Origin: Candidatus Heimdallarchaeota archaeon
GTDB taxonomy: Archaea; Asgardarchaeota; Heimdallarchaeia; Heimdallarchaeales; Heimdallarchaeaceae
Direction of reading: 5' to 3'
Assembly: GCA_016839945.1 (NCBI GenBank)
Contig: JAEOTE010000060.1
Location: forward strand, 1 to 27,305
Length of the DNA: 27,305 bases
Shown one piece after another: positions 4,403 to 19,669 of the stretch (positions within the stretch are counted from its first letter, which is position 1; every line of letters starts with the position of its first letter). A program made the position numbers and the translations under genes. The notes under the pieces are model-generated. The model did not search any database, was not told where the DNA came from, and saw only the letters and a program-made list of their open reading frames with translations.

Positions 4403-5905
4403 ATGCTCGAGAGTATCCTTATAGCCAATCGTGGTGAAATTGCTATTAGAATCATTCGAGCTTGTCGTTTATTGAATAAAAGATCAATAGTCTTGTTCTC
4501 AGAAGAAGACTCTTCTTCATTACATATTAAAATGGCAAATGAAGCCCACAATCTAGGTTCAGGATCAATTCAAGAAACTTACTTGAATATTGATAAAATA
4601 TTAGAAATTGCTAATTTCTCTAATGCTGATGCAATTCATCCCGGATATGGATTCCTTAGTGAAAGTGCAACTTTCGCAGAAAGAATTGAAAAGGAAGGTT
4701 TCAAATTCATTGGTCCTACTCCTGATGTACTCAATCAGCTTGGAGATAAAATGCAAGCTAAGAAATTAGCACAAGAAGTAGATATACCAACAGTACCTGG
4801 TTCAGATGGTTATGTGTCTAATGTTGATGAAGCTGAAGAAGTAGCTGAAGAAATAGGTTATCCTATTATCATAAAATCTGGATTCGGTGGGGGAGGAAAG
4901 GGAATGGAAATTGTAAATTCTGCTTCTTCTCTCGAAATAAGCTTATTGGGATGTCAAACAGTTTCTGAACGATTCTTTGGTAGAAAAGAAGTGTTCATTG
5001 AGAAATACATCAAAGCTCCTCGTCATGTAGAAGTTCAATTTCTATCAGATAATTATGGGAACACAATTCATCTAGGAGACAGAGAATGTTCAATTCAGAG
5101 AGCTCATCAGAAAATCATTGAAGAAGCACCATCATTTCTCTCACAAAGACAGAGGAATTCACTGGGAAAGAAAGTTTGTGCATTAGCTGATAATTTATCT
5201 TATAGGAATGCTGGACCAGCTGAATTTCTATGGAAAGATAAGAAATTATATTTTAATGAAGTTAATCCTAGAATACAAGTTGAACATCCTGTAACTGAAA
5301 TGATTACTGGAATAGATCTAATTGTACAGCAACTGAAAATTGCAGATAATGAAAAGTTAGAACTTAAACAAGAGGATATCAAATATAGAGGACATGCAAT
5401 AGAGTTTAGGATTAATGCAGAAGACCCTCTCAAATCATTTTATCCACAATCTGGTACTGTAACTAATTTAACAATTCCTGGTGGAAACAATGTAAGATTT
5501 GATACTTACCTTTACAACTCCTATAAACTACCTAATTGTTTTGATTCTCTAATTGGAAAATTGATAATCTGGGGAGAAAATAGGGAAGAGACTATTGAAA
5601 GATCAAGATTAGCTCTTCAAGAACTAACAATTTCTGGAATAACAACTAATATCCCACTTCATCAAGCTATTTTAGAAAATTATGAATTCCATTCAAGAAG
5701 AATAACTACAGATTTCCTTGAGATGCAAAAAATCCAAGAAATTATCTCACATTATGAAAAAATGAAATTAGCAGCAGCTTACAAGATTCATGATTTGAAT
5801 AAGGAACAAAGGAATCCTCTAATTATGAATAGAGAAAAACGTGCTTTGGAAGCAAATAGATGGAAAGAACAAAGCAAAATAGAGCAACAACGAAAATATC
5901 CTTAA
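4403..5905 (+). CDS. accC: Biotin carboxylase subunit of an acyl-CoA carboxylase
   Basis: LIANRGEIA, AIHPGYGFLSE, GGGGKGM, RECSIQR.HQK, EVNPRIQVEHPVTE, GHAIEFRINAEDP. Confidence 0.96.
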   Translation: MLESILIANRGEIAIRIIRACRLLNKRSIVLFSEEDSSSLHIKMANEAHNLGSGSIQETYLNIDKILEIANFSNADAIHPGYGFLSESATFAERIEKEGFKFIGPTPDVLNQLGDKMQAKKLAQEVDIPTVPGSDGYVSNVDEAEEVAEEIGYPIIIKSGFGGGGKGMEIVNSASSLEISLLGCQTVSERFFGRKEVFIEKYIKAPRHVEVQFLSDNYGNTIHLGDRECSIQRAHQKIIEEAPSFLSQRQRNSLGKKVCALADNLSYRNAGPAEFLWKDKKLYFNEVNPRIQVEHPVTEMITGIDLIVQQLKIADNEKLELKQEDIKYRGHAIEFRINAEDPLKSFYPQSGTVTNLTIPGGNNVRFDTYLYNSYKLPNCFDSLIGKLIIWGENREETIERSRLALQELTISGITTNIPLHQAILENYEFHSRRITTDFLEMQKIQEIISHYEKMKLAAAYKIHDLNKEQRNPLIMNREKRALEANRWKEQSKIEQQRKYP

Positions 5906-5934
5906 ACTTCTCAAAACACTGAGGAGACTGAACA

Positions 5935-6414
5935 ATGAAGAAAAAAGTCAATTTTAAAGGAACAGAATATATTGTTGAAATACTAAAAAATGGTCAAATT
6001 GAAATTGACGGTAAAGTTTTTTCTTCAACTATTTCACAAAAAATAGAGAATGTTTACAAAGTAGATGTAGATGGTCATCCTTTTACTATAGAGATTACTG
6101 GAAATAAGATATTTGTTGACGGAGAAATTTCTTCTTTATCAGTAAGACCTCATATAGAAAAGAAATCAATCACGGATGATAATCATTATAAAAAAGAAAT
6201 AAAAATTCAAGCACCAATTCCAGGAAAAATAAACAAAGTATTAGTCAAAGAGGGTGCATCAGTTAAAAAAAATCAAGAATTAATAATTCTTGAAGCAATG
6301 AAAATGAGAAATAGAATTTTTTCTCCATTTAAAGGAAAAGTGTTGAGAATTTTTGTCAAGGAAGACGAAAATGTCAATCAAGATCAAACATTGCTAGAAC
6401 TAGCTAGAAAGTAG
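5935..6414 (+). CDS. accB: Biotin carboxyl carrier protein
   Basis: IQAPIPGKI and LEAMKM (biotinyl-Lys123, codon 6301-6303); beta-rich N-terminal extension; SD GAGGAG at 5921-5926. Confidence 0.95.
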   Translation: MKKKVNFKGTEYIVEILKNGQIEIDGKVFSSTISQKIENVYKVDVDGHPFTIEITGNKIFVDGEISSLSVRPHIEKKSITDDNHYKKEIKIQAPIPGKINKVLVKEGASVKKNQELIILEAMKMRNRIFSPFKGKVLRIFVKEDENVNQDQTLLELARK

Positions 6415-6415
6415 T

Positions 6416-7171
6416 TTACAACGTTTCACTAAAAAAACTGATTATGTAATTTTTCATATCTTCAAAGTGTTTTTTATTAGAGAAATTATGATTTGCTCCT
6501 TCAATTATTTTAAAGTCTTTATCCAGACTAGAAGGAATTTTATCATACATCCTTTTTATCTGCTTTTCTGGTAATATTTCGTCTTTATCCCCTGTTATAA
6601 CTCGAATTGGAACTGCTAAAGAGGAAGCTTGCTTCATAGGATTATAATGTTGTGATTGAGATTGAAATACCTTTTTATGATTAACTTTCGGTAATCTCAT
6701 CTGATTGTCTCTTTGCCACAACTGTGTTAGTCCTTCAAAGATTTTCATTCTTGGTATTTTCTCAGTGTCATAAACAGGGGAACGTAAAGCAATACAACGA
6801 ATTCTAGTATCTCTTGTTGCATGACATAAAGCCATAGCCCCCCCAAAACTCTCGCCAAATAAACCAATTCTTGAAGAATCAATTTTCGGATGTTTTGCTA
6901 AGAAGGATATAATTTTATTGATATTTTCATGAGAGCTCATATACTCATATAAACCAGTACTTGAACGAACTCCAGTATAATCAAATGCGAAATATGCAAA
7001 ATTATTATTAATGAAATCTTGTGCTATTCGCTCTTTTTCTTTTTTAGGATCTGTTCCGGGCATACCATTTAATCTAATAATTAAAGGAAATTGTTCATCA
7101 GCTTTCGGGAGGTAAAGAAAGCCGTTTATTTTTTCCGATCTGAACTGAATTTCATGATTTTCTACTAACAT
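6416..7171 (-). CDS. Alpha/beta-fold serine hydrolase; candidate stand-alone thioesterase of the megasynthase
   Basis: GESFGG nucleophile elbow (Ser codon 6848-6850), GDKD acid, EGANH His. Start placed at ATG 7171 (SD AGGAG just upstream) instead of 7198; overlaps the megasynthase stop by 20 nt. The thioesterase role is inferred from context. Confidence 0.85.
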   Translation of the reverse strand: MLVENHEIQFRSEKINGFLYLPKADEQFPLIIRLNGMPGTDPKKEKERIAQDFINNNFAYFAFDYTGVRSSTGLYEYMSSHENINKIISFLAKHPKIDSSRIGLFGESFGGAMALCHATRDTRIRCIALRSPVYDTEKIPRMKIFEGLTQLWQRDNQMRLPKVNHKKVFQSQSQHYNPMKQASSLAVPIRVITGDKDEILPEKQIKRMYDKIPSSLDKDFKIIEGANHNFSNKKHFEDMKNYIISFFSETL

Positions 7172-18805: not shown

Positions 18806-18862
18806 TAGAATTATATCTATACACTCGAATAAAAAGGAGATGTCCTTTCATGAACAAAAAAC

Positions 18863-18879
18863 AAAAAAAGGTTTATATT
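18863..18879 (+). promoter_or_regulatory. Putative BRE/TATA for leaderless birA
   Basis: AAAAAAAGG-TTTATATT, ending 22 nt before the ATG at 18902. Confidence 0.55.
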
Positions 18880-18901
18880 GTACTATTTTCGATGGCGTTT
18901 A

Positions 18902-19669
18902 ATGGTTCCTAAACCTTCGAAAATGAAAACAATATATTTTGATTCAGTTGCATCAACTATGGATGAAGCTTTGAAATATATTGATGAGGAAGAAGAGGAA
19001 ATCATTGTTTTAATTGCAAAGGAACAAACTGAAGGTAGAGGAAGAAAAGAGAGTAGCTGGATCTCACCAAAAGGTGGATTTTATGCAACTTACATTGTAC
19101 CTCTTGAAAAAGAACTCACAGAAGTAGATTTAACGTTTTTTCATTATGCTGCAGCTTTAGCTATTCAAGAAATGTTGCTCATACTTTTCCAAGTAAAATC
19201 TAAGATAAAATGGCCGAATGATGTTTATCTCTATGATAAAAAAATAGCAGGAGTTTTAATTGAATATATTATGGGGGAGAAAAACCATATTCTGATAGGA
19301 ATTGGAATAAACGTAAATAATGAATCGAATGATTTGTCTTCAATCCTTAATGAACAAGCAATAAGTCTGCAAACTGTCTTGAAAGCTGAGATTAGCATCA
19401 AGGATATAGAATCAGAATTATCTAAGCTGATTACTAAAAACACTCTACAAGTTTTAAATTCAGAATTAGAATATCTTACTCGAGATTTCAATTCAAACCT
19501 GATTAATTATAAAAACCAAATTTATTTAAAAGATGGTTCTATAAGAATATGTAAAGGGATAGATAAAAAAGGCAATTTGGTTTTGGAAAAAGACAATCAT
19601 AAAAAACTACTCTCAATTAATGATTCTGATGAAATAACAGAAATAAATCAATCTCAATATCAAACCTAA
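18902..19669 (+). CDS. birA: Biotin-protein ligase, class I (no HTH repressor domain)
   Basis: STMDEA, AKEQTEGRGR, WISPKGG, IKWPNDV, KKIAGVL, GIGINV. Start moved from TTG 18878, which overlaps the TATA box, to ATG 18902; ATG 18923 is an alternative. Confidence 0.93.
   Translation: MVPKPSKMKTIYFDSVASTMDEALKYIDEEEEEIIVLIAKEQTEGRGRKESSWISPKGGFYATYIVPLEKELTEVDLTFFHYAAALAIQEMLLILFQVKSKIKWPNDVYLYDKKIAGVLIEYIMGEKNHILIGIGINVNNESNDLSSILNEQAISLQTVLKAEISIKDIESELSKLITKNTLQVLNSELEYLTRDFNSNLINYKNQIYLKDGSIRICKGIDKKGNLVLEKDNHKKLLSINDSDEITEINQSQYQT

Follow-up and report, generated by a model that had tools for sequence, protein, structure and literature searches.

A native gene cluster of a Heimdallarchaeaceae archaeon that probably builds reduced acyl chains on its own carrier proteins

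Eukaryotes arose within the Asgard archaea, yet they have bacterial-type fatty-acid membranes, which raises the question of how and when their lineage acquired fatty-acid synthesis. Archaea are generally held to lack fatty-acid synthases (FAS) that depend on an acyl carrier protein (ACP), as the preliminary description of the DNA considered here had noted; a 2024 preprint still says so, describing archaea as without FAS I, FAS II, ACP, and ACP synthase (bioRxiv 10.1101/2024.07.05.601840). What, then, is made by a six-gene cluster of a Heimdallarchaeaceae-type Asgard archaeon whose central gene encodes a megasynthase with carrier domains? The cluster occupies positions 4403-19669 of the window, by which we mean the whole stretch of DNA that was analyzed: an entire contig (C29, 27,305 bp) of a 3.0-Mb metagenome-assembled genome (MAG; G000), which comprises 186 contigs and is 88% complete with 2.35% estimated contamination.

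Our answer, which we hold to be probable, is that this is a native cluster for building a reduced acyl chain de novo, on carrier proteins, from malonyl-CoA that the cluster itself would make. What we observed directly are the genes present, the order of the domains, the intactness of the catalytic residues, and the conservation, linkage, and native origin of the cluster. In the scheme that we infer, the biotin ligase (BirA) would biotinylate the biotin carboxyl carrier protein (BCCP), and biotin carboxylase, BCCP, and carboxyltransferase would together convert acetyl-CoA and bicarbonate to malonyl-CoA. The C-terminal Sfp-type 4'-phosphopantetheinyl transferase (PPTase) would prime the synthase's own two ACPs, most likely on Thr rather than Ser. 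The acyltransferase (AT) would load malonyl units, and two unlike ketosynthases (KS1 and the FabF-like KS2, both taken to be active) would elongate the chain iteratively, while the ketoreductase (KR), a dehydratase (DH) of the polyketide synthase (PKS) type, and a FabK-type enoyl reductase (ER) using flavin mononucleotide (FMN) would reduce each unit. The translationally coupled alpha/beta hydrolase would then free the chain from the carrier. The domain scans of the synthase list no FabA-type dehydratase/isomerase, the only DH models to match being those of the PKS type, and from this we expect a long acyl chain that is fully or almost fully saturated.

The cluster consists of the following genes:

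4403-5905, plus strand: biotin carboxylase (AccC type) of a biotin-dependent acyl-CoA carboxylase (Pfam Biotin_carb_N, CPSase_L_D2, Biotin_carb_C)
5935-6414, plus strand: BCCP (Pfam Biotin_lipoyl, E 2e-17)
6416-7198, minus strand: alpha/beta-fold serine hydrolase (Pfam Hydrolase_4, Peptidase_S9, DLH, BAAT_C; GESFG nucleophile elbow)
7152-17225, minus strand: megasynthase P0001, 3357 aa, no internal stop (open reading frame (ORF) map and Pfam/NCBIfam segment scans)
17228-18805, minus strand: carboxyltransferase, single-chain 12S/PccB type (Pfam Carboxyl_trans, E 6e-187)
18878-19669, plus strand: biotin-protein ligase, BirA catalytic type, without helix-turn-helix domain (TIGR00121, 127 bits vs cut-off 83)

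The ORF map and family scans recovered every gene of the preliminary description where it had been placed, and the domain scans bear out its central idea of a type I FAS/PKS that depends on carrier proteins and is self-contained, bringing its own PPTase, biotin ligase, and extender supply. For the synthase itself it had listed KS, AT, ACP, KR, DH, ER, and a PPTase. All of these are there; a second intact KS, a second FabK-fold domain, a second ACP, and the threonine carriers had been missed. From the N terminus, the order is FabK-like domain, FabK-type ER, KS1, AT, KS2, ACP, ACP, KR, DH, and PPTase:

16248-17225, minus strand: N-terminal FabK-fold TIM-barrel domain, aa 1-326 (EGGGE motif; model pLDDT 93.2; Foldseek match to FabK, E 3e-16, TM 0.75-0.81)
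15126-16247, minus strand: FabK-type (FMN, TIM-barrel) ER, aa 327-700 (TIGR03151 FabK, E 1e-23; invariant His476)
13656-15083, minus strand: KS1, aa 715-1190 (Pfam ketoacyl-synt and Ketoacyl-synt_C; Cys924, His1058, His1097)
12636-13598, minus strand: malonyl-type AT, aa 1210-1530 (Pfam Acyl_transf_1, E 2e-51; GHSLG Ser1311, Arg1336, TAFH)
10986-12275, minus strand: KS2, FabF-like, aa 1651-2080 (intact Cys1821-His1969-His2009)
10320-10808, minus strand: two ACP domains, about aa 2140-2302 (PP-binding matches at 10605-10808 and 10320-10523)
8766-10028, minus strand: KR with structural subdomain, aa 2400-2820 (Pfam KR, E 8e-30; TGGGRGIT, Ser2716, Tyr2729, Asn2733)
7866-8738, minus strand: PKS-type DH, aa 2830-3120 (Pfam PKS_DH_N and PS-DH; His2856 and Pro2865 of HxxxGxxxxP, both invariant)
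7191-7808, minus strand: Sfp-type PPTase, aa 3140-3345 (Pfam ACPS and AASDHPPT_N)

None of the catalytic residues that were checked varies among the relatives with this architecture, 38 of them archaeal and 11 bacterial, at 26-69% identity. These residues include the KS1 triad (Cys924/His1058/His1097) and the catalytic residues of the AT and the KR, and the PPTase residues Asp3242, Glu3244, Lys3280, and Glu3281 are conserved among relatives as well. The AT scores 232 bits against the FabD model TIGR00128 (below its cut-off of 260.9) and combines an Arg with a Phe-containing xAFH motif, which we take to be typical of malonyl-specific ATs. KS2 is the best-conserved domain of the synthase (identity 75% to Heimdall relatives, 60% to Loki relatives, and 50% to bacterial ones) and, judging by its intact triad, is not a degenerate chain-length factor. 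A search of the host's own genome returned KS1 and KS2 as its sole KS domains and the fused PPTase as its sole PPTase match.

The N-terminal part deserves some attention, as its tandem FabK duplication is invisible to BLASTP and could be seen from folds only. In an AlphaFold model of aa 1-715 (pLDDT 92.8, pTM 0.93), ER residues 327-695 superpose on FabK with Z 37.9 and an rmsd of 2.1 A, aligning 312 of the 315 FabK residues (VIA-align); as modeled, this domain is of the FabK type, with a full-length TIM-barrel and the conserved His. The preceding domain, modeled alone as the first 330 residues, has weak sequence similarity to NMO/FabK and lacks the His of the ER motif (EGGGE vs ECGGH in the ER). 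According to the models, the synthase thus begins with a tandem FabK pair, of which the first copy is probably non-catalytic. The two FabK-fold domains pack confidently against each other in the model (pTM 0.93). Together with the two unlike KS domains, the tandem points to a chain in which every enzyme that is normally a dimer occurs as a pair of domains, and the synthase might work as a monomer.

The genes around the synthase complete a biotin-dependent acyl-CoA carboxylase (biotin carboxylase, BCCP, and a single-chain carboxyltransferase) and add the biotin ligase. The biotin carboxylase matches the accC-type NCBIfam model PRK08654 with 591 bits (below the cut-off of 739) and has orthologs of 56-66% identity in the clusters of three relatives (L017, L018, and L019), in which the BCCP, starting 29 nt past the biotin carboxylase stop, is also kept. 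The carboxyltransferase gene, the sole one found in the genome, stops 2 nt short of where the synthase gene starts and adjoins the synthase in relatives too. The hydrolase likely starts at the ATG at 7171, giving an overlap of about 20 nt with the 3' end of the synthase gene. Because of this short overlap and the 2-nt gap, carboxyltransferase, synthase, and hydrolase appear to form one operon, from which the biotin ligase gene is divergently oriented, lying next to the carboxyltransferase gene. The hydrolase, a candidate chain-release enzyme, stays with the cluster in the three relatives and in a rearranged cluster (L102), and the ligase keeps its position in the same four loci.

Is this arrangement more than coincidence? 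The order biotin ligase / carboxyltransferase-synthase-hydrolase / BCCP-biotin carboxylase is kept in L017 (Heimdallarchaeaceae), L018 (labeled Hodarchaeota), and L019 (a closed 4.36-Mb Loki-type genome), so that the synteny the preliminary description had proposed to look for is found in Heimdall-, "Hod"-, and Loki-type genomes. In L102 (contig C15 of genome G081, family f7), the gene order is rearranged, and all six genes are still adjacent. Linkage of the six genes extends to Asgard genomes with synthases only 48-59% identical to that of the window and persists after rearrangement, and the arrangement therefore goes beyond chance. The one bacterial relative inspected has its synthase next to a TetR gene, without carboxylase genes.

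Within the phylum, the synthase is patchy: a KS2-ACP query over 400 genomes found it in 62. It is present in 26 of the 30 genomes of the window's family (f1; two of the 26 are closed genomes), in 12 of 16 from the rest of the order, and in 10 of the 12 of family f7, as opposed to 0/22 in sister family f5, 3/14 in the Loki-type family f19, and 10/135 in the Loki-type family f20. Outside the Asgard archaea, the KS-AT region has relatives of about 50% identity in Elusimicrobiota, Chloroflexota, Acidobacteriota, Actinomycetota, and Myxococcota, and an alignment query placed relatives in at least 579 species genomes, including those of the cultured Ornatilinea apprima and Thermanaerothrix daxensis. 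In a KS1 tree (FastTree, best-scoring matches only, no PfaA or FabF outgroup), the Asgard sequences form one clade (support 100) that splits into Heimdall and Loki subclades and lies nearest to other archaeal sequences rather than to the ER-bearing Desulfobacterota forms. The synthase of the "Hodarchaeota"-labeled MAG (P0027, L018) nests in the Promethearchaeota (Loki) subclade, through either a mislabeled bin or transfer between Asgard lineages.

As for any MAG, the question arises of whether the contig truly belongs to its host. The preliminary description had rightly presumed an Asgard host: the named synthase relatives at 59-65% identity are Heimdallarchaeaceae/Heimdallarchaeota, full-length relatives (48-69%) carry the labels Heimdallarchaeaceae, Heimdallarchaeota, Hodarchaeota, Promethearchaeota, and Lokiarchaeum, and the KS-AT relatives take in the complete genome of Candidatus Heimdallarchaeum aukensis. 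It had also named two archaeal flanking genes (NreA and a Rag-like GTPase), both of which were confirmed as archaeal/Asgard-type:

1098-1682: Gtr1/RagA GTPase
1767-3017: Nre

Bacterial contamination or a bacterial-archaeal assembly chimera could be suspected from the completeness (88%) and estimated contamination (2.35%) of the MAG, from at least one other contig (C45, see below) that looks foreign, and from the tetranucleotide distance of the 15-kb block, which lies slightly above the 95th percentile of same-size pieces. Against this, the GC content (32.1%) and tetranucleotide distance of the whole contig sit at the median of its own genome, and both cluster junctions and six flanking genes are reproduced in the independent Heimdallarchaeaceae assembly L017, with an AlkZ-like gene on one side and purple acid phosphatase/CARDB, glyoxalase, a 181-aa ORF, and GATase_4 on the other. 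Closed Asgard genomes carry the cluster as well. A bacterial or chimeric contig, which the preliminary description had named as the finding that would undo its case, is contradicted by the composition and the recurring flanks. Because of the typical composition, the recurrence of the junctions, the archaeal-type flanks, and the Asgard relatives, we reject this explanation, whose probability we regard as negligible: the cluster is native to Heimdallarchaeaceae.

A peculiar feature of the synthase lies in its carriers. Both ACPs read LGIDT[VI]KQAE, with Thr2170 and Thr2265 at the attachment position, where they align with the phosphopantetheinylated Ser of the PigH and AcpM carriers. They match the canonical ACP (PF00550) in family and fold and lack the Ser of its DSL motif. 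The Thr stands within an otherwise canonical DLGIDxxK motif and is nearly universal at this site across the ACPs of the 120 relatives retrieved, both archaeal and bacterial. Two Heimdall-type relatives (P0018 and P0048) have three ACPs each, with Ser, Thr, and Ser as attachment residues and one fused PPTase serving the chain. Because Ser and Thr carriers coexist in these proteins, we argue that Thr is a working site, and phosphopantetheine attachment to Thr would be the simplest reading of the sequences. On the other hand, a literature search on Thr-linked phosphopantetheine found no paper, and we know of no studied carrier protein that uses threonine; both weigh against our proposal, and priming is therefore an assumption.

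From the same two facts (Thr where the canonical Ser aligns, and no report of Thr-linked phosphopantetheine found in the literature) one might conclude that the synthase, though conserved, is a relic without catalytic activity, whose carriers lack the Ser needed for phosphopantetheinylation. We consider this very improbable and reject it: the 10-kb frame is free of stops and all catalytic residues are kept across relatives down to 26% identity, the Thr is nearly invariant in its canonical motif across archaea and bacteria alike, the PPTase is always fused or adjacent, and a single protein can have both Ser and Thr carriers. Apart from those of the cluster, the genome has no plausible carrier domains. 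One other ACP-like ORF (C119:800-1081, L004; 93 aa, PP-binding 32 bits), which adjoins a ketopantoate-reductase-like gene, was set aside as a second carrier for having Glu at the Ser site (DLGLDEDDL). The carrier Thr, family-wide as it is, forms a biochemical puzzle of its own that extends to bacterial genomes in the hundreds, among them some of cultured Chloroflexota.

How does the synthase relate to known systems? By its domain order and associated PPTase, it appears to belong to the Type R/S "pfa-like" secondary-lipid synthases, a family found in many bacteria and some archaea and catalogued in bacteria by Shulse & Allen in 2011 (PLoS One 6:e20146, PMC3098273). Type R was described from Koribacter, Solibacter, Elusimicrobium, and Roseiflexus and Type S from Desulfobacterium autotrophicum (PMC3098273). 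Both have one pfaA homolog with the order KS-MAT-second KS ("CLF")-ACPn-KR, which the window's synthase shares (KS1 717-1126, AT 1215-1528, KS2 ~1651-2080, ACPs ~2140-2205 and 2235-2302, KR 2622-2759). They also have a PPTase in direct proximity, here fused into the chain, and the Koribacter cluster contains an acetyl-CoA carboxylase gene, much like the linked carboxylase described above (PMC3098273). With respect to KS placement, relatives from the same phyla (Elusimicrobiota, Chloroflexota, and Acidobacteriota) are about 50% identical over KS-AT, although Koribacter and other reference sequences are absent from the KS1 tree; by its core order and PPTase, the window's synthase fits Type R, and the ER-bearing bacterial relatives fit the Desulfobacterium Type S. 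The differences are considerable nonetheless. The Asgard chain has the PPTase and the tandem FabK-like/FabK ER fused in, its second KS keeps Cys-His-His and so is no true chain-length factor, a full carboxylase, biotin ligase, and hydrolase are linked to it, and the host is archaeal. Threonine carriers are not mentioned in the 2011 catalogue (PMC3098273). The cluster appears to be an Asgard variant of an already catalogued family, distinguished by the fused tandem FabK, the fused PPTase, and the linked carboxylase, biotin ligase, and hydrolase. The novelty implied by the preliminary description holds to the extent that our literature search found no paper on the six-gene cluster or on Thr carriers, nor any tying Lokiarchaeota to a polyunsaturated fatty acid (PUFA) synthase or to plsY and fatty-acid biosynthesis; it does not extend to the synthase family as such, known from bacteria since 2011.

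Likeness to the PUFA synthases (PfaA/PfaD/PfaE) is evident, as PfaA (TIGR02813) is the top NCBIfam model for the window's synthase, homology of the ACP repeats is clear, and the ER shares the TIM-barrel FMN type with PfaD (TIGR02814). The PfaA score (884.9 bits) stays under the cut-off of 1010.1, however, the ER is structurally nearer FabK (Z 37.9) than PfaD (Z 33.2), and the carriers use Thr. Moreover, no PfaC-type subunit was found in the genome, whose only KS-like sequences are the two of this protein, and no FabA-type DH/isomerase in the scans of the synthase, which leaves no evident way to make cis double bonds. Fungal and mycobacterial type I FAS share the FMN-dependent TIM-barrel ER within a megasynthase (Z 29-31 to yeast and mycobacterial FAS), and fungal type I FAS also carries its own PPTase domain. 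Their domain order and KS, KR, and DH lineages are wholly different, and the window's synthase has no MPT and implies no barrel-forming architecture. Enediyne PKSE enzymes (SgcE/CalE8) are iterative and PfaA-related, with the order KS-AT-ACP-KR-DH-PPTase, an Sfp-type PPTase fused at the C terminus, and chain release by a separate enzyme. They have one KS and no ER and make a conjugated polyene, whereas the synthase here has two KS and two FabK-fold domains and thus falls outside that group; no enediyne accessory genes were seen among the clusters inspected. Lastly, the other fatty-acid route proposed for archaea, an ACP-independent complex based on ketothiolase/DUF35 and said to be common in Asgard genomes, works on CoA thioesters and needs no ACP, PPTase, or malonyl-CoA, in contrast to the carrier and malonyl-CoA that would be used here (bioRxiv 10.1101/2024.07.05.601840).

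Critically speaking, several features of the cluster weigh against a plain fatty-acid product made from acetyl-CoA. The top NCBIfam model of the carboxyltransferase is methylmalonyl-CoA decarboxylase alpha (mmdA; 751 bits, below the cut-off of 999), so acetyl-CoA is not established as its substrate, although the malonyl-type AT motif points indirectly toward malonyl-CoA. The hydrolase falls within a generic esterase family and not within a recognized thioesterase family, KR and DH resemble trans-AT PKS domains, and no relative in the synthase family whose product is known is a plain fatty-acid synthase. Might the product therefore be a specialized, partly reduced metabolite of the polyketide type, for instance a long chain bearing hydroxy or ene groups, a signaling lipid, or a storage lipid? 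Besides the nearest relatives of KR and DH, the score below the PfaA cut-off and the optional presence of the cluster within a Loki-type genus, on top of its patchiness in the phylum, speak for it. A C-terminal fused PPTase is, as noted, also a hallmark of the enediyne PKSE enzymes. The very name of the family refers to a "secondary lipid" (PMC3098273). What makes this alternative distinctly unlikely to us is that the full KR-DH-ER set is conserved with intact residues, that no tailoring genes (oxygenases, methyltransferases, glycosyltransferases, or cyclases) are among the six conserved genes, and that a synthase nearly universal in the window's family (26/30) is more in keeping with a housekeeping lipid than with a niche metabolite. 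We retain a reduced acyl chain as the probable product.

Where would such a chain go? This genome has a glycerol-1-phosphate (G1P) dehydrogenase (436 bits vs cut-off 413), an enzyme found in 30/30 genomes of the window's family, and CDP-archaeol synthase (CarS) occurs in 28/30 of that family and 11/12 of f7. Because the family retains both, the product is most likely an additional ("secondary") building block alongside archaeal-type lipids, not a replacement for them. A point on the other side is that no native GGGPS (PcrB-type) was found in 46 relatives of the order, and archaeal lipid making in the family can therefore also be assumed only with reserve. The MAG's sole GGGPS (PcrB, 188 bits; C45:1467-2243, L119) lies on a 7.6-kb contig, and its nearest named relatives are Bathyarchaeia (59-66%). 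A neighboring 529-aa gene has family matches at paralog level only (36-39%), and composition fails to separate C45 from the rest of the genome. This contig is probably foreign, be it a binning contaminant or a recent transfer. The C45 match was rejected as proof of intact ether-lipid synthesis, given its Bathyarchaeia relatives, the absence of a comparable gene in the order, and a neighbor without family ortholog.

A further possibility is that the acyl chains enter membrane glycerolipids, yielding a mixed or bacterial-type membrane: DegV proteins (FakB-like, fatty-acid-binding) would bind them, Dak2 would phosphorylate them, and PlsY would transfer them to G1P or glycerol-3-phosphate. The genome encodes 15 DegV proteins (e.g., C62:59430-60293, C105:19487-20317, and C82:68658-70451), two stand-alone Dak2-domain genes without a Dak1 neighbor (C73:23162-23659 and C109:5583-6062), and two PlsY-family genes, whereas DegV is absent from four archaeal control genomes. 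Copy numbers of PlsY and DegV track the synthase within the class: DegV amounts to 3-16 copies in f1 and 4-19 in f7 and PlsY to mostly 3 in f1 and 4-12 in f7, as against 0-2 of each in the synthase-free f5. PlsY and DegV genes even lie side by side in f7, and both closed Heimdallarchaeum-type genomes from the window's family have a PlsY paralog beside the cluster's biotin ligase (e.g., L100:8168-8896 in G016). The lack of a native PcrB-type GGGPS in the order would also agree with such a membrane, as would the ability of bacterial PlsY to take G1P; the 2026 paper that showed PlsY to accept G1P also recorded plsY and plsC in Asgard metagenomes (PMC13400652).

The route has serious gaps, however. 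Both PlsY-family genes score below the NCBIfam PlsY equivalog cut-off, and the genes adjoining them are uninformative. PlsX was not found in this 88%-complete genome, and PlsC (PF01553) is absent from the family (0/30) and from f7 (0/12). PlsY and PlsC are in fact complementary, with the multi-PlsY families f1 and f7 lacking PlsC, which is present in 11/12 genomes of f4 and 22/22 of f5, where PlsY is at most single or a weak match. The genome has no clear match to GpsA, and the NAD_Gly3P_dh_N matches that were checked proved ketopantoate-reductase-like. DegV abundance was rejected as a general companion of the synthase, since none of 54 Loki-type genomes has DegV, synthase carriers included, and an adjacency of G1P dehydrogenase and DegV on C62 is not conserved in five relatives. 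Bacterial DegV/Fak systems, moreover, mainly serve the uptake of outside fatty acids, and G1P dehydrogenase and CarS are retained. Of PlsC, PlsX, PlsY, and glycerol-3-phosphate dehydrogenase, which the preliminary description had suggested looking for, only PlsY-family genes came up in this genome, and the bearing on the lipid divide that it foresaw for an Asgard host is tempered by the retained archaeal genes, the missing PlsX and PlsC, and the presence of the synthase in 62 of 400 genomes. All in all, an acyl-phosphate/PlsY route is possible but incomplete, and replacement of archaeal lipids in the window's lineage is not supported; we judge a membrane-glycerolipid fate unlikely. It is least contradicted in f7 (e.g., G081:C15, L102, L103), which combines the synthase in 10/12 genomes and its many PlsY and DegV genes with G1P dehydrogenase in 0/12 (E<=1e-20) and PcrB in 0/12 (E<=1e-10), while CarS is kept.

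With a secondary lipid as the most likely product, the cluster still represents a complete, conserved, and, as predicted, self-priming ACP-dependent synthase with its own presumed malonyl-CoA supply that is native to a whole Heimdall-group family, the value of which is limited by the archaeal lipid genes kept in that lineage. As it comprises a single 10-kb gene and five helper genes, direct expression and assay are feasible without culturing the organism. More speculatively, a Thr-linked carrier, a DegV/Dak2 kinase-like step, and the PlsY paralogs could together place acyl chains on glycerol phosphate, possibly G1P. We give this combination only a small chance; if true, it would provide the first natural Thr-linked prosthetic arm and acyl-ester lipids beside archaeal-type lipids in close archaeal relatives of eukaryotes.

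Away from the cluster, the contig carries three small genes of the glyoxalase/VOC family (232-627, 646-1050, and 24374-24766). The last of these is 87% identical to its counterpart in L017, compared with 38-74% for the neighboring genes.

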